Source: a virus
Reading direction: 5' to 3' (one strand)
Length of the DNA stretch: 64,000 bases
Virus record (IMG/VR): IMGVR_UViG_3300037628_000643
Location: 1 to 64,000 of that record
A program made the position numbers and the translations under genes. The notes beneath the pieces were generated by a model, which searched no databases, was not told the DNA's origin, and saw only the letters and a program-made list of their open reading frames with translations. Every line of letters begins with the position of its first letter. Within the stretch, counting starts at the first letter, position 1. Positions 2,603 to 26,045 of this stretch are shown here, in pieces.

Positions 2603-5255
2603 ACTTTCTCCTCCCCTATAATAACTCTTCGAATAACAAAAGCTGGAACCTCTACAAAGCCTTTTTGTGCTGCAGTTTGGTATGCAACATTTCTTCTGTC
2701 AATTTTATTAAATACAGTAGCCTCACTAAGATTCATTGTCTCGTTAATATCATTATGCGATCTATCGTGATCAAATCCACTCTTACTGCAATAAGATACA
2801 GCAAAGTGCCCCATTGGGGATATTAGTACAAATGTGTCTGCCATACTTTTTCTCCTTAATTAATTATAATTGACCAGACGGTAGCGGCTTAACACTGCTT
2901 TTGTCTAGCCAAGTATCACCCGCCCTAACCTTAGTAGGAAGGACATCCGTCAACTTCACGATAGAACCCCTAAATATTACTCGCTGACCAATTAGAAAAT
3001 CGTCTTTCGCATCTTCTTTTTCTACTATTTCGCCATTCAATAAATCAATAACCTTATCCTGAAACTCATTAGCCTCTTTCTTAGATTCAGCGAACAATAA
3101 AACCTTTCCTGTCCAGCCGTGCGTGTCTATCTGAGCTGTGAACATGTCATCTTCTTCGCCAATGAAAACTCTTCCTTTCTTATATTCTTTAGTGCAATTG
3201 TTACTCATAAAATTTCTCGCCCCTTATTATTAAATACAAACTTAACTCTCTGCCAAAATGACATGCTCTTGAATTCTGATATTTGTTTTTCTTTTTCTCT
3301 AATCTGACATCTATTATCTTCTACCTTTCTTTGAAGAATATCAGCGGATTCCTTATAAAACGCAACCGAATTATTTATGCCATCAACCGTTAGCCCTAAT
3401 ACATCTTCAACCATAGGATGCATTGCAACCTGAACATATTTTGCTGGGAATTCTAGCCTACCTGTGTTATTGTTATATTCTCGTTTTTTACTTGTATCTG
3501 GATAACAATACTCTCTTGTATTAAACCTCTTATACTCTACTGTAAGATCTTCTCTCGTCACTGCAGAGGAAACACGAACCGATGGAGGCCTATACATCTC
3601 GACTCGACATAACTGATCTCTGTCCATTTCTACATAATTGATGTCTGTTATGACTGTTATTTTGCTGCTCATATCTTCTCCTTCAACTTCGCTACTAGCT
3701 CATTAGCGCGATTAATCAGCTTTTGACTAGCGGTTATTGCTAGATGCTCTAGCTCACCAATCACAGCCTGAACTTGCTCATTCCATGCTATATTAGCCTC
3801 TTCTTCGACAGTAAAGACAAATAGCTGATTTCCGCACCTCCTTCGATATCCAGTATTATCCACTGGAGAAATAACTCTCTTAGTAGTCTCGCCTTTTGCA
3901 TTCAGCGGGGCAAAGTACATCTTAGAGTAATACACTCGCTTATCTGTTTCATCGATTGATCTAATGATGCATTTAGTTGGAGGTACACTTCGTAGTGCTT
4001 TCTTGTTTAAATCCGGTTGATTATAGTGAGTAACCCACACTATTTCACCTTCATGCTTTCCATCTTGAATTTCTTGTGTTTCAATTTCCATAAAATATTC
4101 ATCCTGTTATGTGTATTCTTTTAATGATTTTCTTGTAAAGCCATCCGTCTCTAACAATCTCACGGGTAACCAATCCGTCTTTATGTAGTTTTCGATATTT
4201 CTTTCTTAATTTCATGTGAGAATATTTATATCTATGTACGAATATCATTTATTTTTACCCAAAAATATTGGCATCCAATTGAAACACATTAATACCAAAA
4301 ACGCAAAGTCAATCAAGAAATTATCTGTAATAATTAACTTAAATGCTATATTGATAGCGACAATACCTAATCCTGAAAGTAGAATCAACATCAATGTAGA
4401 GAATAACCTTATACCCTGTAACATTTGATTATGCCAAGGTGTACCATCGTGGATCTTGATGTTGAAGTTTATGTTGAATGTTTTCATTGTTTCTCTAACT
4501 CCTCTATACGTACAGTCAACTCTTCAACAACAGAAAGCAATTCAAGGACATACTCCTCAACAGATTTACTCGCGTGATACTGACGTCCACACTCAGGACA
4601 CAAAGGCCCATCTTCACTCAAATCCTCTTCTGGTGTAGGAGTATCAAGTCCGTACCCACAACTACAATATGCAAATGCCATTATTTTTCTCCTCGCTGTT
4701 TATTTTCATCATAACAATCACCCATGAATTCTTCTATTTCCTCTTCAGTCCATCCCTGCTTTCTCATCTGCCAGTGAGTGGTTTCGTCAAGTTCAATGCT
4801 ACTTATTGGGTCACATTTATATCCAATGCTAGATATTACTAACACAAAAAATAAGAAAACAAATATTCCGATAATGATCACAACTGCCCACTCGGTAATG
4901 GCTTAAGATTATGTTCCGCTGCACAGTGAGCGTAACCTCTCTCTGGATTAAATATCCAAATCCAATCGTCTCTCGTAGAGTCATTGTTTTCTGGTTTGCA
5001 TACTGTGCAAATAGTGTTCGAGTATATGACTCTTTGTCCGATCATAAAACCATTCATAATCTCTTCTCCATCTTCAGCTTCCCACATAACGTTATCTCAA
5101 TTGCCACAATACAGTTCCCGATAACAGATGGCATTGTAACAATATACTCCTTGTTGTCTTGAGTAATTACATACTCTGTTTTTGAAAGCTTGTTTATTTG
5201 TGAAAATAAAATATAAATAAGAACAACCATGCAAAATGCGAATATTTTTAACTTT

Positions 5256-5726
5256 TTACTTAAACTCATATTTATCCACCTCACAACCCGTATGCCTATC
5301 ATACTTGGAAGCCACTTGAATTGCAACCTCTCCGTCTCCGCATATTTCAAATGCACCGTGAGCATATTGACTACCTGATCCTGCAGTGATAAACGTGTCA
5401 CAGATAATCCTTTTGTGTAGATCCCACTTATACCAGAATAATGTTTTTTCTGACTTATACACAAAGATTTCTAATCCGTCAGTGTGGTTTTTGACAAGAA
5501 GCACTGTTGATTCAGAAGAGTTTGGACGTTTAATTTTGCCTTCTTCATAGCTGTTATAAAACGATAATATATCATTTCTATCGCCTGAACCTACAATAAT
5601 GCTGTCCTTATACGTCAGTATCTTTGGATAGATATCCTCCATAACTTCCACGCCATTAATGCATTTCGTTCCGCGCTTATCGGCATAAACAATTTTCTTT
5701 TTGCAATCGATTAGGATTGTTGTCAT
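5256..5726 (-). CDS. HslV/proteasome-beta-like Ntn-hydrolase (threonine protease)
   Basis: N-terminal MTT nucleophile, ADKRG, PKI, two GSG motifs (AGSGSQYAHGA), C-terminal D-x-x-TG. Confidence 0.75.
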   Translation of the reverse strand: MTTILIDCKKKIVYADKRGTKCINGVEVMEDIYPKILTYKDSIIVGSGDRNDILSFYNSYEEGKIKRPNSSESTVLLVKNHTDGLEIFVYKSEKTLFWYKWDLHKRIICDTFITAGSGSQYAHGAFEICGDGEVAIQVASKYDRHTGCEVDKYEFK

Positions 5727-6589
5727 GAACTCTCCTCAACTTCAAAACGTTGAGCAGTAACACGCATTTCATACCCAGTTGAATGGTTACGACCTGTCCA
5801 CAACTCCTGTCTTTTAGGCTTGTCACCATCATGATAATTCCATTCATTGAAGATGAAGAACACCTCCGAAGCATCTAAACTAGAACATACAACTGCACTA
5901 TGTTTATCCAGCAACTCTGCTAACTCAATAAGAAAATTTGCTCTATTATCCATAATTACCTCCGAATAGTTACTAGCTTATATTTTTGACAAGACTCACC
6001 ATTATGTCTGTCATGCGTATGTTTTCCACAAGGACATAATTTGAAGCGAGGGAACTCGCACATAACTATCCTTTCTTCACACATATGACAGAAGCACCCT
6101 GAATTTGGTGGGCTTGCTCCACTAGTGCCACATTTAGGACATACATACCTGCTATACTCTTCTCTACTCATACCTACCTTCCATGGTGTTGCTATACTGG
6201 ACTGGTAGCTTCATTCCCCAAACTCCCGTTTGTCTTCTGGTACGGGGCGAATGAATCTATAGGCACAGTCATCTTCTGCCTTATATGGATAGTTATCATC
6301 GTCATTAATGTGGCCCAAAAGAAAAACAAACGAGTGAGAAAAATCCTCATTATCACTAAGCTCATAAAGCTTCCCAACCTCTGGCTTATAAGCAGCCTTT
6401 ATGATTGTTCCTGCGTTCTCGATTACAGATATTTTATCTGCCACCCAATCTCGACCTTCCGAGTGAATTTTGAAAGGATATAATTGATTGACGCTAAGTC
6501 CGACTAATCTGCACTTCATGCCTTCTGAGTCAAGATATAATTTTCCTATTTCGTATATGTAGCCGTTTACTTCGATTGTTTTGTTCATA

Positions 6590-7270: not shown

Positions 7271-8552
7271 GAATTATTCCTTCCAGTTTATTACTGTACA
7301 TGACTCAGTTGGTAACGGTACACTAAACCCATATTGCTCCAACCATGAAATGATTTCTTTTCTTACAGAGTCATTTATCACAATGACAGCGAAAAAGTCA
7401 CCGTCATCCACCGCTTGTTTAATAGAATGCTCTACTCGATTTTTTTCAATCGAGAAAATATCATTGGATAGCTTACTTTGGACTCTCGCCTCTTGTGCAT
7501 TAATCATAACTTTTCCTCGCAATCATCAGGCCACGTTATTTTAATGGCGTACCCTTCGTCTTGGTGGTGCATATAACTAAAGCACCTATTGCCAAACTCA
7601 CTAACTGAAACTCCGTACCCGTTCTTGACAAGCTCATCCGTGACCCGCTTGATAACCCATGAGATAGATTTTCTTGAGATAACTCTAGAAGGCTCAGCCC
7701 ATCCACGATACAAAGAATCATAAGTAAGAAATCTCACCTCAGCTATATTACCGCCATCTTTGATTTCTTTATTGATCTTATTGTATGCCTTGTCGATATA
7801 CTCCTTGCATTGCTCCCTTGTTAACTCCCAATCACTTCTAACCTTACACATAGACTTGTTAGCTTCAATCGCAGTTGGTTTTACTGGTAATGATATGATT
7901 GGGATTATTAGCTTCTTTTCTTCTTGCTGGATATTATTCTTATTGTCCTTTCTAAAAAGAAAATACAACCATACTACAGCAAAGGTATATCCCATAATGA
8001 AAGATAGCGTTTCCATAACTCCTCCTAATTTATTAGTTTATTTATCAAATTCCATCAAGCCAATCGAAAACCACTCAGACCAATTCATAAAAACTACCCT
8101 GCCTGATCTAAATTGAATCAAGATTTCCGTACCGCTTGTTTCAAGCTCAACATCAGTACAAGTCATCACAGTGTCATTTTTTGGAATCCAAACATTTTTA
8201 ATACCAACGATATTAAGGTTAGTTTCTAGCCATTGCTTAATGCTATCGTCCTTTTTGTTAAATTTCTTTGAAATTGTCATAAATCTTCCTCCTACCAACT
8301 AACACTATGAATGCATGATAAGTCCATTATTCTATATCCCAATCCCTCTAGCCAATCTCTAATCTCGTACTCTACTATGTTGCCTGATTCAATCTCAATC
8401 GAACCTCTGCCTACAGAGATTGCCTCAGCGATTAAGTTCTCTATACGCTTCTTTTCAAGAATGAAAACTGAAGCCTTTAGCTTGTTTGTATTTTCTCTCG
8501 CCTCTTTTGCGTTAATCATGCTATTTTTCTCCGTTTTTGATTGATTTTAGTG

Positions 8553-8581: not shown

Positions 8582-11500
8582 GCGTAAATGTTTTATTTTG
8601 AGCGTAGAATGCGTTTTTTTAATAGTAGGTGTGCGTTTTTAGCACTTTCCTTGTGCTAATACGAACTAATTACTCAAATATAAACACGTATTAAAAAATG
8701 CATTCTATCTGTAGTAGTGTTTTTGAGAGCTAACCTATGTCTTTTACATCTATTTTTTCAATATTTTCCCAATAATTACCATGAACATCAATATATCCTG
8801 TATAAATTGTTTTGGGCTTACCTGCGAAAGCCAACATAGCTCCATCTTCTTTGGCATTGTCATAAAACCAATAATATTTCCCAACCTCAGGCTCCCAAAT
8901 GTCTTCGATGGTTCCAAGCTCTCTTGGGCCCACTATGTATAGCTCGTTAGTATTAAGGAATCGAAATCCTCCATCTCCTGTGTAAGAACAATCTAGTGCT
9001 ACCTTGTGATCTGGACAAGCGATTATCTCCATACCATGTAAAAAAAGTATAACCCCTTCTTTGTTTTGATACAGCTTCCCAACTTCATATCGCTTGCCTT
9101 TGAAATCAATAGTATTATTCATTTGTTTTTTCTCCATCTCTAAATTTTACATAAACATTATATTCTTCTCGAAATCCATTCATATCATTAATTTTATTGA
9201 GCTCAATTAAATCAATAGAAATACTTTCGACCAGCGGGAGTAACTTACTTCTGAATTCTTCTTCAACCTGTTTCATATGATCGCTAACAATATCTTCCGT
9301 CAACTGTGCCTTTACTTTTTGTTCAAGACCATACTTCATAAGCTCCATTGCATTTATATTATTAGTTAGTGCCATATTTATTCCTCCTCATGCTTTTTCA
9401 AACAAGTAAACCCACGATCACCTACACACTTACCCTCATGATTTACATAAACAGGGCCACATCCTTCGCACAAAACTTCAACTATATAATCCTCCTGACA
9501 AAGACCCTTTAAATCGCCCATATCGGAATCGAAGTTCTCTATTGAGCATTGTTTGCAGAAATCTGCCATATCTATTCCTCCTCTGCAAAGAATACCATGC
9601 TCTTGTGCCAATCTTCAATCGTCATTGATCGCATATCTTCTTCAACATGTTCGTACACAATCCTCTCTCCGTTATCGATAACCATAACTACAGGACAAAG
9701 CCATAAGTCTTTATTGTCTGCCCAGATCTGCCCTTTTTCGACAATTAGTAAATTTGAGGTCTCTTTTTCGACATCTTCCATACAATCTATCCCTGTTCCA
9801 TTACAATTTGGACAAATCATTTTTCCTCCTTCAACATCTTCTCAACCTCATAAATAGCTTTCGACAACCTATACTCCGCTGGACAAGCATAATCATATTC
9901 ATGAAAATCAGATTCCTTATGGTGCAAATTTTCACACTCACAATGTTTTGTAGCTGCTTCCAAAACTAATTTTATATAATGCGCTTTTTGTTTATGGTTC
10001 ATTGGTGCCCCATCATTTGATATCCTCCATTTTCTTGTAAAACTCGACATACTTCACATATATCCACATCGATACAGGAATCACATAGGACATAGTAATC
10101 ATGAATCTTACCCAATTAGGGAAAATGAAGTCATCTAGCCAAATAGTGATAGGAAGAAAAAACAAACCTCCAGCTATGAGATATGAAAGTAACATAATGA
10201 ATAGCAGCATCTGACCAATGAAAATAAAAAATTCTTTTAGATTGATCAGGACAAATTTACCAAAATACTTCATCATTCAACCACCTCTTCCATCAAATAC
10301 CAAACGCCACCAAGCTGATAACATCGCTCTTCTGTGAATTTTTTCCACGGAAGACCATAAAGGCTAACTCGCTGTCCAGTTGTTGCATCAATACCATAAC
10401 TCACAATCTTGTCGCCTCGCCTATTCATTATCTTGTGAGGATAATCACTGTCAAAGTCATCGTGTTCGAATGTATGGCTGAATAGTTCAATCATTAGATT
10501 TCTCAACAACATCAATAAACTCAACCAGATAGTAATCATTAGCAGATAGCATCACTTGCAATACGATAACATCACAGTCGCTTTTAAAATATCCAGAATG
10601 GTCAAAATATCCTCTGCAAGGAGAGTCTTCATTAAAAAACGTCCCTGCATCACTAGAGTCTGCGTGAAATCTTGCAAATTTACTCTTCTCAGTTGATTTA
10701 ATTAATGTTCCTGAGATAGAGTTGAATGAAATATCGACTTTATTACCTGCGTGATTTATTGTATTGAACATATATTTCTCCTATTGTTTACTTACAACTA
10801 CTCCAACCATCTCCACAGTACAGCTTTGATCTCTTGGGAGTGATTGTTGGCACAGCATTTTTGCCTTGTAATATCTATCATGAATACCATCATCTCTTTC
10901 AACAAGACCTGCTATGATAAAAAATGTAATAACAACTCCTGCTGCAAAGCTTTTGATATAATTTTTCATCACATATCCTCGCTTTTCAATACAACAACCA
11001 AAACTTCACTAACGACACACTTCTGACTTCTAGGAATGTTTATCTCACAATTTTCGATGGCTTCTTTTGCCATAACGACTTCTGGCTGTGACTTCCATAC
11101 CGCTCCAGTCATTATTACTCCGAACATCATCCCGAAAACAACCATTACTACATCACTCATAAATTCCTCCTCAAATCCTTCATTGCTTTCATCGCTTTCA
11201 TTCGATCAGACAACTTCTTACGATTTTCTTCTGAAATTTGTTTTGGCTTCTTTGCGCCCAATATTAATGCAATACTAACTGCCTTGTCAATAGTCGTTTG
11301 ATAAATAGTTTCTCCATCGATGGGTGTGTTTAATAATATTGAGAGCTTCTTACACTTATTTGTCGTCAATGGTTTATTAACGCCATGTACTGCAACGCAA
11401 ATATGCGTATCAGATATTGGAGATATGGTTCCGTGCGGACAATCGATAGAGGTCATGCCCTCAGCCTCCATATCGAAAAAAAACCTTTGAGCAACGCCTT

Positions 11501-20005: not shown

Positions 20006-20458
20006 TTACGTCTTTTTGCCACCGTCTTTTCTTCGGTTTTCAACCTTGTGGTCTTGTCTCTGTTTGTTGTATGCCATTTTCTCAACCAAGGCACCAGCGA
20101 CATCAAGATCATGTCCTCCACAATAATCAAAGATTCGAATTAGTGCGTCAGCCATTTCGACTTCTTCAGCTTTTCTGTGGGGTAGATGATCATCCATTGC
20201 GTTTTTTCTGACGCCCTCATACGCCTCAGATATCTCTGAGTGTATCAAAGTCATCATTTCACCCTTATTTCTATCCAATCTTTCTCCCGTATCAATATCA
20301 TGCCACCACTTAGCCTCTTCTGATGCCTTGAAACAAGTGTCTGATAATAACTGTACTGCATTTCTTACGTCTGTCATTGGTGTTTTATTGATTGGAAAGT
20401 TTTTAGCACTATCTGCTTTCTCTTTTGCGGTTCTACTGCAATCGTACATATTGATCAT
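20006..20458 (-). CDS. MazG-like NTP pyrophosphohydrolase
   Basis: LIHSEISEAYEG…EVEMADALIRIFD…KMAYNKQR. Confidence 0.85.
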   Translation of the reverse strand: MINMYDCSRTAKEKADSAKNFPINKTPMTDVRNAVQLLSDTCFKASEEAKWWHDIDTGERLDRNKGEMMTLIHSEISEAYEGVRKNAMDDHLPHRKAEEVEMADALIRIFDYCGGHDLDVAGALVEKMAYNKQRQDHKVENRRKDGGKKT

Positions 20459-23168: not shown

Positions 23169-23252
23169 TTATTTTTCTCCTTGAATCAGTTAACATGCTT
23201 TATATGTCACATTAACTATGTTTTTGGCACTTAATATGCCTTATATGGCATA

Positions 23253-24308
23253 TTAACCCCACATAATCTCTTGACAATCCATTAGCACTTTTGTAGCTAG
23301 ATTGACATTTGGCTTCTTTCGAAGATCAGTCTTTTTGTATAAGACTTCACGAATGTATTTATCTTTACTTTCTGCATACTTGATTAGCTCATTATAAGTC
23401 CATGCGCCATTTCTGATGCTTAATAACTCTTCTGCATCTGGTCGCTTGACAATGACTCCATCTCCTTTAAGGATTTCTTCCCCCATTTTTAAAAGGCGAA
23501 CTAAGTGCATTCCGTGCTTGAAATCGACGCCGAACTTTTCTTCAAGCTCTGCTCGCACTGGATTTCGATTTTTCTTCCACTCCCAGTAGCCACGATGACG
23601 CTCTTTGGCAAATTTCCATTCTTCTTCGTTGTATTTGATAATAAACTGAAGCTCGCCTTTTGGCTCCTCATTCTTTAGTTGCTTTATAGAAATATTAAAA
23701 TCCCCATCAACTGTAAGCGCATTTGGATCACCGCCACTAAAGTATGCGCCGAAGATATTTCCTCCAAAATGAACCAGCCTAGTGTTTGATAGATATGACA
23801 TATTGAAGTTGCTATTGAAAGATTTCGCTCCTGTAAAGTTCTGCACAAGCTTAATGTAATTACTTCTTAGTGGAGCCTCAACTGGTTCAGGAGAATTAAT
23901 CCATTTTTTATGTCCCTTAATCCGTTTCAGTTGTGATGATGCATATCCACTAAACGTAAATGCTACCTTTGACGACAGTAAGTCTTCACGATGACTAAGA
24001 AGATAATTAAACGCCTCGTCATTCGTCTGTATCAGAGAGCTATCATCAACCCATAATGACTCAAGGATATTCGGATTGGCGCCAAGATACAAATCCATAA
24101 AATGCGTCAGCTCAAGAACCTTTCCATCCTCTTCATCTGGTAGCGTTATTTCTCGAACATTGTGCCAAGGTGTTAATGCGTACTTTTTTGGCGCACAAAA
24201 GATCCCTCGAATATCAACATCGGATGTCGGAAGGTTGGTTCCATACGCCAATGATCCAGCATAGTGTTTAACTATAATGTTGTTGTCGTTCAATTCATGA
24301 GCTTGCAT
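23253..24308 (-). CDS. Pol-beta superfamily nucleotidyltransferase (RlaP/Nuc-transf-like)
   Basis: GSLAYGTNLPTSDVDIRGIF; ANPNILESLW; KHGMHLVRLL…RPDAEELLSIRNG. Confidence 0.85.
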   Translation of the reverse strand: MQAHELNDNNIIVKHYAGSLAYGTNLPTSDVDIRGIFCAPKKYALTPWHNVREITLPDEEDGKVLELTHFMDLYLGANPNILESLWVDDSSLIQTNDEAFNYLLSHREDLLSSKVAFTFSGYASSQLKRIKGHKKWINSPEPVEAPLRSNYIKLVQNFTGAKSFNSNFNMSYLSNTRLVHFGGNIFGAYFSGGDPNALTVDGDFNISIKQLKNEEPKGELQFIIKYNEEEWKFAKERHRGYWEWKKNRNPVRAELEEKFGVDFKHGMHLVRLLKMGEEILKGDGVIVKRPDAEELLSIRNGAWTYNELIKYAESKDKYIREVLYKKTDLRKKPNVNLATKVLMDCQEIMWG

Positions 24309-24835
24309 TTTGCTACCCTCTCTGCTAGTTCGATTTCGTATTCATTAAGATCGTGAGTGAATGCCGTTCCGCAATAATCTGGATTATCTTTACTGTGCTT
24401 CGCGTGAGCGCTTCTCTCCTTAACAAAATTAAATATCTCCTCTGGAAGAATGACGCCAACATTAGTCAGTGCTCCATTTAGAGCGTCTTCAGTTTCTTTG
24501 AAGCATGCAAAGGGATATTCTCCTCCATAAACCTCAACTCTTTGAAGAAGATCTAAAGTATCATTTAGATCTGAAGAGTATCCGCCATTAACAATAATAG
24601 TAGTCTTATGATTTTTAGCCCAATCGAAAAGCATTTCTTGTTGCGGACTTCTGTTCTGTGTAATCTTATATCCCATACTCTCAATACTTTCAATAGCAAC
24701 GAAATCTGCATATGTCGGCTGGTATTTCAAAAACATTTCAACCGTCGTATGCTGGCTCTGTATCCCTGCTCCTATCCCGCTTATGTACATGTTCTGAAAA
24801 AAATATGCTCTTAATTCACTATTAGTTGAACTCAT
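24290..24835 (-). CDS. Peptidyl-tRNA hydrolase 2 (PTH2)-like protein
   Basis: AGIQSQH, WAKNHKTTIIVNGG and FKETEDALNGALTNVG match the PTH2-like fold pattern. Confidence 0.6.
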   Translation of the reverse strand: MSSTNSELRAYFFQNMYISGIGAGIQSQHTTVEMFLKYQPTYADFVAIESIESMGYKITQNRSPQQEMLFDWAKNHKTTIIVNGGYSSDLNDTLDLLQRVEVYGGEYPFACFKETEDALNGALTNVGVILPEEIFNFVKERSAHAKHSKDNPDYCGTAFTHDLNEYEIELAERVAKCKLMN

Positions 24836-26045
24836 TTTCTTTAAACCTCCTTACCTTTTTAATTCGTTCTTGGCGCAATAACTCGCCAAACAATTTGCCG
24901 GAAATCAACCTTGCACCCAAGTTATCGATTGTCTCTTCTTCATTTTCGATTGATGCTAAATACGCACCGCGTAAAAAATTCCTTTGAGGATAACTTTCAA
25001 CCCTTGGCAATCTGCCCATAGCATCACAATGGCAGCAATCAATGAAATCTTGAAGCAACGATTTGTTTGAGTATGCACCTACTCTCTGTAGTAAGTCAAC
25101 TATTTTTTTAGCGCGCATATCCATAATTGCATGCATGCGTGTGTGCTGCTCGCAAACAAGCATTGCTAGTTCACGATAGCTTTTTGGCACAGATAGTCTG
25201 TCACAGAAATCTTTTACAGCAGATAACCCCGCTTGGTCATGACCATAGAGATTTCCTCTTTCGTTGTGACAAATTGGTTTACCAGTATCATGTAGAAGGG
25301 CAGCCCACTTAACCATTGGCGATAATCCGTAATAAGAACATCTCTCCAGAACCATCAATGTATGCGTAAGAACATCTTTTTCGGCATGATGCTCTTTGGG
25401 TTGAGGAATGTTATCGCAAGCCCATAATTCTTTAAACCAAATATGCTCACCTGCTTTGTGTAAAAACTTAAAAAACAAATGAGAATAAGGCTCGCTTAAT
25501 GCCTTCTCGGTCTCTGCCCACACCCTTTCTTTAGTTAGGTATTCCCAGTCACTAGAGTCGATAATCTGACGGCATAAAGACATTGTTTCGGGCGCTACAG
25601 TCCATTCAGGGCCAAAGCGAGCCAAGAACCTTGCTACGCGCAAAACTCTAACTGGGTCTTCTAAAAATGCATCGCTAGTGTGTCTCAGTATTTTATTTTC
25701 GATATCTACCTGACCGTCAAACGGATCAATGATAGTGCCTTCAAAATCCATGGCGATACTGTTGATGGTTAAATCTCTACGCTGTAAATCTTCAATGAGA
25801 GTGACACCTTTTGTCTCTACGGAAAAGCCACCATAGCCATCTCCTGTTTTTCTCTCAACGCGAGCCAAAGCATACTCATCTCCAGTCTGCGGATGAAGGA
25901 AAACCGGAAACTCAGATCCAACCAGCTTGTAGTCCATAAACTCCATCAATTCAACTGAGGAATCTACCACAACATAATCAATGTCTTTTGGCTCGATCCC
26001 CATAATGGAGTCTCTGACATAGCCACCGACTTTGTATTCTTCCAT
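24822..26045 (-). CDS. cca: Multifunctional CCA-adding tRNA nucleotidyltransferase with HD phosphatase domain
   Basis: VGGYVRD…DIDYVV, EYALAR, EDLQRRDLTINS, EDPVRVLRVARF, LLHDTGK. Confidence 0.93.
   Translation of the reverse strand: MEEYKVGGYVRDSIMGIEPKDIDYVVVDSSVELMEFMDYKLVGSEFPVFLHPQTGDEYALARVERKTGDGYGGFSVETKGVTLIEDLQRRDLTINSIAMDFEGTIIDPFDGQVDIENKILRHTSDAFLEDPVRVLRVARFLARFGPEWTVAPETMSLCRQIIDSSDWEYLTKERVWAETEKALSEPYSHLFFKFLHKAGEHIWFKELWACDNIPQPKEHHAEKDVLTHTLMVLERCSYYGLSPMVKWAALLHDTGKPICHNERGNLYGHDQAGLSAVKDFCDRLSVPKSYRELAMLVCEQHTRMHAIMDMRAKKIVDLLQRVGAYSNKSLLQDFIDCCHCDAMGRLPRVESYPQRNFLRGAYLASIENEEETIDNLGARLISGKLFGELLRQERIKKVRRFKENEFN

Follow-up and report, generated by a model that had tools for sequence, protein, structure and literature searches.

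Why should a phage carry three overlapping genes whose predicted products all bear on the ends of tRNA? The question is raised by the first 64 kb (hereafter, the window) of the 104,021-bp IMG/VR phage record IMGVR_UViG_3300037628_000643, estimated by CheckV to be complete, in which a gene for a CCA-adding enzyme with an HD domain (Cca; P0001) is followed by genes for a PTH2-like protein (P0002) and for an RlaP-like nucleotidyltransferase (P0003). Our analysis suggests that this trio probably maintains a supply of usable tRNAs during infection, unblocking and rebuilding ends that have been damaged, and that it is carried most likely to blunt host defences or toxins that target tRNA.

The overlapping, co-oriented arrangement described in the initial annotation was reproduced to the nucleotide, with open reading frames (ORFs) at exactly the positions listed in Table 1, all on the minus strand. 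The cca gene overlaps the PTH2-like gene by 14 nucleotides (nt), and the latter overlaps the RlaP gene by 19 nt. The ATG of the PTH2-like gene, at 24835, has the Shine-Dalgarno (SD) sequence AAGGAGG 10 nt ahead of it, lodged within the 3′ end of cca, and SD-like motifs also stand ahead of the cca start at 26045 (AGGAGGAGG) and of the RlaP start at 24308 (GAGAGGG). Because of these overlaps and SD sites, the trio constitutes one translationally coupled unit. It is situated inside a long operon of small genes of early type, which runs leftward from about 28.7 kb downwards and to which the trio can be assigned because the small ORF preceding cca stops 2 nt short of the cca start. Megablast of the trio region against 50,697 phage records returned no match, so that a close cultured relative is lacking.

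The first gene product, P0001, matches the PolyA_pol head domain (PF01743, 8e-19, residues 4-121), the HD domain (PF01966, 2.5e-8, residues 225-308) and phrog_2244 (4e-129), and aligns over 1-404 of 409 with NF008137, the model named multifunctional CCA addition/repair protein (2e-124). Its score on this model, 415.5 bits, is below the equivalog cut-off of 451, and that on pcnB is far lower (66.6 bits). The translation displays GGYVRD...DIDY, RRD (RRDLT), EDPVR and LLHD motifs, so that the head domain has the features by which class II is recognized, namely GGxVRD with the DxD carboxylates, RRD, and the EDxxR nucleotide-selection motif. These matches bear out the CCA-HD identity proposed in the initial annotation, and P0001 is predicted to be an E. 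coli-type class II CCA-adding enzyme with an HD domain, that is, a homologue of the same architecture and not a certified equivalog. It resembles the multifunctional Cca of E. coli in its full-length collinear match, its head-domain and HD motifs, and its similarity to the enterobacterial enzymes (about 40% identity to Salmonella Cca across 99% of the length), but differs in its position below the equivalog cut-off, in being phage-encoded, and in being coupled to two more putative tRNA-end enzymes.

The product of the third gene, P0003, scores twice the cut-off on the RlaP profile (PF10127, 6.3e-12, 46.1 versus 23 bits, residues 7-130), matches phrog_388 over residues 5-350 (3.5e-68), and is 52% identical to a protein of Pseudaeromonas phage KLEP7 annotated nrdC.11/Nuc-transf, while a sequence search against the PDB gave no match. 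Its translation holds the hG[GS]...DxD motif in the form YAGSLAYGTNLPTSDVDIRG (GSLAYG...SDVD). The earlier RlaP-like call thus stands, and P0003 can be classified, from its profile matches, as an RlaP-family Pol-beta nucleotidyltransferase. Pseudomonas RlaP, found in RtcB-RlaP-RtcA operons, adds one or two nucleoside monophosphates to RNA 3′-OH ends and prefers mimics of cleaved or damaged tRNA, and NrdC.11 of phage T4 is a member of the same family (Carruthers, Fatma, Huang 2025 preprint, PMC12776372). P0003 shares with them the Pfam family and the Pol-beta catalytic motif, and the same nucleotide addition, which has been shown only for the Pseudomonas enzymes, would be expected of it. In contrast to Pseudomonas RlaP, however, P0003 is not found beside a ligase but is coupled to Cca and to a PTH2-fold gene, and the Pfam profile covers only its N-terminal 130 residues.

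The middle gene product, P0002, matches phrog_3668, labelled "hydrolase" (1.5e-35). Since the PDB, searched by sequence and by profile with P0002 and its two alignments (A1 and A2), yielded chance rows only and no Pth2 hit, the link to Pth2 had to be established by fold search and profile-profile alignment. The AlphaFold2 (AF2) model of P0002, built from the 49-sequence alignment A1, has a predicted local distance difference test score (pLDDT) of 88.8 and a predicted template modelling score (pTM) of 0.83. Foldseek placed Pth2 structures at all of ranks 1-11 (1xty: E 5e-5, template modelling score (TM) by target 0.65), and VIA-align, which is independent of Foldseek, aligned 113 of 118 residues with P. 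horikoshii Pth2 (1wn2; Z 11.0, root-mean-square deviation 2.6), followed by 2gax (Atu0240; Z 8.6) and then by a match at Z 3.9; a look-up in the Atlas gave, for the structure there, a TM of 0.72 by target to a PF01981 cluster. At the sequence level, PF01981 was matched weakly by 41 of 138 diverse family members (best 1.3e-4), and any other family by at most two. Alignment of the PTH2-like family with 33 archaeal Pth2 sequences, retrieved by a scan with archaeal 16S primers and subsequent PF01981 searches of the genomes, gave E 0.0014 in hhalign, in which only local modes were used, as the global mode produced a meaningless alignment. The PTH2 fold is thereby confirmed for the modelled P0002, and the PTH2-like call made from the sequence in the initial annotation, for which a profile or structure search had been advised, is upheld by the AF2 model, Foldseek and VIA-align. 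The family itself is large, comprising 2285 representatives at 50% identity, and its taxonomically labelled members are essentially all viral.

In comparison with archaeal and eukaryotic Pth2 (PF01981; 1wn2, 1xty, 1q7s), P0002 shares the fold and has in common with them an invariant Gln-x-x-His on helix 1, a Trp, an acidic residue after strand 3, a Thr on strand 4 and a closing Pro; it differs in its length, which is greater by 50-60 residues owing to an insertion behind helix 1 and two additional helices at the C-terminus, and in escaping the Pfam model. Four residues, Q26, H29, E114 and T124, are invariant across the 138 members of the PTH2-like family, and R9, Y11, N15, Y17, G24, W72, K77, T78, N83, G85, F112 and P131 are conserved in at least 93% of them. 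In the profile alignment, Q26, H29, W72, E114, T124 and P131 of the family fall on Q26, H29, W49, D86, T98 and P104 of Pth2, all six of which are invariant in the archaea, Asp86 being kept in the PTH2-like family as the invariant Glu114. The collection's gene call for this protein (P0004, 166 amino acids) begins at Met16 (window 24790-24835). We favour Met1 at 24835 as the true start, because the N-terminus ELRAYFFQN, which forms strand beta-1 of the model, is conserved, and because the AAGGAGG site is strong.

Comparison with other phages shows that the association of the three genes is recurrent. Cca, PTH2-like and RlaP genes are directly adjacent, in the same order, in Vibrio phage 496E54-1, Rheinheimera Barbavirus, Vibrio phage 11895-B1 and the complete 94.9-kb IMG/VR phage G005, and in Vequintavirinae (KB57, UPEC06, Kashira, Mydo, PVP-SE1 and KPP-1) they lie within 5 kb, with small ORFs between them. 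Jumbo phages, which also contribute members to the PTH2-like family (one of them annotated as a peptidyl-tRNA hydrolase), possess all three genes at distances of 31-65 kb, the PTH2-like gene adjoining genes for a NinI-like phosphatase and an ATP-dependent ligase. Among the 50,697 phage records, 147 were positive for the PTH2-like gene, 235 for the RlaP-like gene and 455 for Cca, and at those frequencies all three would be expected to coincide by chance in less than one record. Of the points on which the initial annotation had let its proposal depend, two, a PTH2-like middle gene and co-occurrence in relatives, are therefore borne out, the latter by adjacency in four unrelated phage lineages and clustering in Vequintavirinae. 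A pattern-based scan of viral contigs returned only six loci, four of which are fragments (7-30% complete) and uninformative as to missing Cca or RlaP genes.

Phage KLEP7, the closest relative by Cca and RlaP identity, is without the P0002-type PTH2-like family. It possesses a canonical-like minimal Pth2 of 93 amino acids (L166, 8002-8283), two genes upstream of a Cca-RlaP-metallophosphoesterase group. In this minimal protein the Lys of Pth2 (QK in the translation) and the D-x-G-x-T motif (DLGFTE) are retained, and it represents another Pth2 lineage than P0002. Because a different Pth2 type is found in a similar neighbourhood, a Pth2-type enzyme was recruited to the Cca-RlaP neighbourhood at least twice.

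Several of these loci display interruptions or annotations of their own. The cca gene of KLEP7 is annotated as two coding sequences (CDS), possibly through a frameshift. In the closest trio-bearing relative (IMGVR_UViG_3300038548_000082; L007, 8423-10250) a free-standing ORF for a 211-amino-acid GIY-YIG-type homing endonuclease (8941-9576) divides the RlaP gene into two ORFs, and an Rfam scan found no intron in the split gene. An ORF of roughly 840 bp is inserted in the cca gene of Vibrio phage 11895-B1 (L003, 2744-4985), whose annotation gives cca as a joined CDS; a neighbouring gene on the minus strand harbours two group I introns, at 7920-8171 and 8815-9094 (RF00028, each about 83 bits). 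The "DNA methylase" of Serratia phage Kashira (ON287374.1; L170, 1181-2443) has a PolyA_pol head (82 bits) and corresponds to Cca, and its "DNA polymerase" (4768-5844) corresponds to RlaP (55.8 bits), both being likely misannotations. Finally, jumbo phages Turkey5 (L005, 4417-5625) and XbC2 (L169, 3485-4711) have, between the PTH2-like gene and the ATP-dependent ligase gene, a conserved protein of about 400 amino acids with no Pfam match, in a cluster flanked by phosphatase genes; it is a candidate for a further RNA-repair component.

The initial annotation had also reported that neither a tRNA gene nor an RNA ligase is visible in the window, and had argued that the substrate may for this reason be host tRNA. 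For the window itself this holds, as ARAGORN found no tRNA there and whole-genome searches for the PF09414 and RtcB ligase families placed no RNA ligase in it. It does not hold for the genome, which encodes two tRNAs and an Rnl2-like ligase at 100588-103752 (Table 1), and the argument is thus an artefact of the window. The phosphatase and ligase genes are located about 1.3 kb downstream of the tRNA pair, with three unknown small ORFs between (locus L167, 4589-7753); a family search for RtcB found none in the 104-kb genome. Because the phosphatase and ligase are present next to tRNA genes in the same genome, we regard the trio as a probable part of a genome-wide tRNA-repair toolkit. In phage T4, a phosphatase/ligase heal-and-seal pair undoes the damage done by host anticodon nuclease. 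The region at 100588-103752 looks, by its gene content, like a module of this kind, in that an Rnl2-like ligase is preceded by an end-healing-type phosphoesterase; unlike the T4 Pnkp and Rnl1-Rnl2 system, it has a lambda-phosphatase-like healing enzyme instead of Pnkp, no 5′-kinase was identified, and the pair lies outside the window, far from the trio. Both tRNA genes encode their CCA, which led us to reject Cca as the maturase of the phage's own tRNAs; being superfluous for their maturation, Cca fits a role in repair.

Table 1. Features of the three-gene unit and of the tRNA, phosphatase and ligase genes elsewhere in the 104,021-bp record
Feature	Position	Strand	Details
Cca, predicted class II CCA-adding tRNA nucleotidyltransferase with C-terminal HD phosphohydrolase domain	24822-26045	-	407 amino acids, P0001
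Divergent protein with predicted PTH2 fold	24290-24835	-	181 amino acids, P0002; large virus-specific family without Pfam model
Predicted RlaP-family Pol-beta nucleotidyltransferase	23253-24308	-	351 amino acids, P0003
Shine-Dalgarno AAGGAGG of the PTH2-like gene, within 3′ end of cca	24846-24852	-	Read from sequence
tRNA-Met(CAT)	100588-100664		Encoded CCA; ARAGORN
tRNA-Arg(UCU)	100671-100747		Encoded CCA; ARAGORN
Lambda-phosphatase-like protein	102079-102735		PF00149; 1g5b 3e-34; phrog_246
Rnl2-like RNA ligase	102793-103752		PF09414; phrog_548 1e-58; T4 Rnl2 2.6e-5

How might the three proteins act together? Every step of the scheme that follows is extrapolated from family biochemistry; it builds on the identities, folds, coupling and co-occurrence described above. 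The PTH2-fold protein would hydrolyse the ester by which an aminoacyl, N-acyl-aminoacyl or peptidyl group is attached to A76 of a tRNA that is damaged or has dropped off, yielding a free 3′ end, and the HD domain of Cca would strip 2′,3′-cyclic or 3′-phosphates left by nucleases. RlaP could then restore one or two nucleotides lost beyond the reach of Cca, or at a break in the anticodon loop, and Cca would rebuild C74-C75-A76. Together with the lambda-phosphatase-like enzyme and the Rnl2-like ligase, internal tRNA breaks might also be healed and sealed. The repair reading is favoured by the presence of this partner module in the same genome and by the overlap and co-occurrence of the trio genes.

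Several points weigh against it. P0002 has no Pfam or NCBIfam match, PF01981 not being reached even at E ≤ 1. Lys22, invariant in Pth2, is replaced by Gln or His in the relatives of P0002 and by Gly in P0002 alone; Asp15 and Arg13 of Pth2 are replaced in the PTH2-like family by Asn and Phe, and Thr90 of the Pth2 DAGxT motif has no counterpart there. Because of these replacements, the substrate of P0002 may differ from peptidyl-tRNA. The Lys of the GK motif and the Asp and Thr of DAGxT are reportedly implicated in Pth2 catalysis, and P0002 is without two of these three residues, so that the release of tRNA from peptidyl-tRNA, which the initial annotation had invoked for PTH2, is not established for it. 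The co-occurrence counts derive from a handful of lineages and carry no phylogenetic correction, and Stenotrophomonas phage DLP_6 has a PTH2-like gene without RlaP, its Cca-like match being sub-threshold only. In the literature searched, no experiment on the trio or on a phage member of the PTH2-like family was found. Lastly, counter-defence is the likeliest purpose of the trio, but it is not separable here from general support of phage translation.

In its strict form, such general support would mean that the trio gives the phage more capacity to turn over tRNA, to maintain CCA ends and to recycle peptidyl-tRNA during its translation burst, when host Cca and Pth are no longer resynthesized, and counters no host effector at all. 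Counterparts of all three activities serve housekeeping in every cell (Cca, Pth), the phage bears tRNA genes of its own as well, and the neighbours of the trio are ordinary early genes, with no recognizable anti-defence genes among them. We nonetheless consider this unlikely, given that the phage tRNA genes encode their own CCA and that the genome has a phosphatase and an Rnl2-like ligase, a heal-and-seal pair of the type with which T4, as mentioned above, counters host nuclease damage. Moreover, no housekeeping role is known for RlaP, which prefers damaged RNA ends (PMC12776372). In another reading, RlaP would work mainly with the distant ligase and lambda-phosphatase-like enzyme on anticodon-loop breaks, where it would make good the nucleotide that RloC-type nucleases take out; that its gene adjoins those for Cca and the PTH2-like protein would then reflect co-regulation and not a single 3′-end pathway. 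RlaP is defined by its association with RNA ligases, and in jumbo phages its distribution mirrors theirs (PMC7824862; PMC12776372), the PTH2-like gene in those phages being located in phosphatase/ligase clusters; both the present genome and the trio-bearing G005 encode PF09414 ligases. This division of labour is possible, yet we find it doubtful: in the present genome the ligase is not adjacent but 76 kb away on the linear record (circular permutation would reduce the distance to about 25 kb), while the RlaP and PTH2-like genes share an overlap of 19 nt, and in two complete phages, Barba31A and Vibrio phage 496E54-1, the adjacent trio is kept with no PF09414 or RtcB ligase detected, indicating that it is not strictly dependent on such ligases. 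Since the genome does encode a phosphatase and a ligase, RlaP may, beyond its proposed action at 3′ ends, also serve in ligase-dependent repair of tRNA breaks.

It could further be argued that P0002 is no tRNA enzyme, having kept the fold while acting on some other ester or non-RNA substrate, or merely binding, in a coincidental neighbourhood. The missing PF01981 match and the loss of the Pth2 Lys and of the DAGxT Thr would agree with this, as would the second-best structural match, 2gax, a protein of unknown function. We hold it to be very improbable, however. The four residues that are invariant in 138 members all fall on invariant positions of Pth2 (Q26, H29, D86 and T98), a pattern that marks an active enzyme working with the same pocket; in several unrelated phage lineages the gene is again linked to those for Cca, RlaP, phosphatases and ligases, and in KLEP7 a canonical-like Pth2 occupies a similar place. 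Given its kept and replaced residues, P0002 is best described as a candidate PTH2-fold esterase with a pocket that is kept but re-tooled, and not as a certified peptidyl-tRNA hydrolase. A more specific version, which we offer as a speculation with little likelihood of being correct, is that the PTH2-like family has exchanged peptidyl-tRNA hydrolysis for a re-tooled Gln/His/Glu/Thr-site esterase activity that would clear a defence-inflicted block of the acceptor end, such as an N-acetyl-aminoacyl group left by a GNAT toxin or some different adduct at the 3′ end; this esterase, Cca-HD and RlaP would together constitute a ligase-independent "acceptor-end decontamination" pathway, a dedicated anti-defence operon directed against 3′-end-targeting immunity.

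Two further observations concern the surroundings of the trio. The 84-nt gap past the RlaP stop (23169-23252) contains two inverted repeats, one of them a perfect 7-bp hairpin (ATATGCC-ATATAA-GGCATAT) and the other imperfect (GTTAATGTGACATATAAAGCATGTTAAC); this may be an attenuator, a promoter region or a site of processing at which the transcription unit of the trio ends. Farther along, a minus-strand ORF of 150 amino acids (20006-20458) matches the C-terminal third only of phrog_5658, labelled "pyrophosphatase" (7.7e-60), and has no Pfam hit.

RlaP, a CCA-adding enzyme and PTH2 have already been predicted to be components of RNA repair and ribosome rescue in jumbo phages (Iyer, Anantharaman, Krishnan, Burroughs, Aravind 2021, PMC7824862). 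The present locus contains the same three components with the same predicted roles, but joins them in one overlapping operon of a 104-kb non-jumbo phage, in contrast to their dispersed arrangement in jumbo phages, with the PTH2-like gene beside phosphatase and ligase genes. It is thus a compact and clean further example of a known gene set and not a new system, and the advance over the concept published for jumbo phages is incremental. To that concept the present analysis adds a comparison with Pth2 residue by residue, a second Pth2 type that KLEP7 has in this neighbourhood, and the correction that tRNAs and a ligase are, after all, encoded in the genome.

Among the forms of host immunity to phages, a growing class acts on tRNAs by cutting, extending, pyrophosphorylating or acylating them. 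The countermeasures of phages that have been established by experiment are, to our knowledge, few, and consist of T4 Pnkp/Rnl and phage-encoded replacement tRNAs. It should be emphasized that the PTH2-like family is large, virus-specific, without a model in Pfam and biochemically untouched, and that the residue map (Q26, H29, E114 and T124 kept, the Pth2 Lys and Thr lost) supplies direct targets for mutagenesis. The coupled Cca/PTH2-like/RlaP operon provides a handy three-gene unit for asking whether phages actively repair tRNA acceptor ends.

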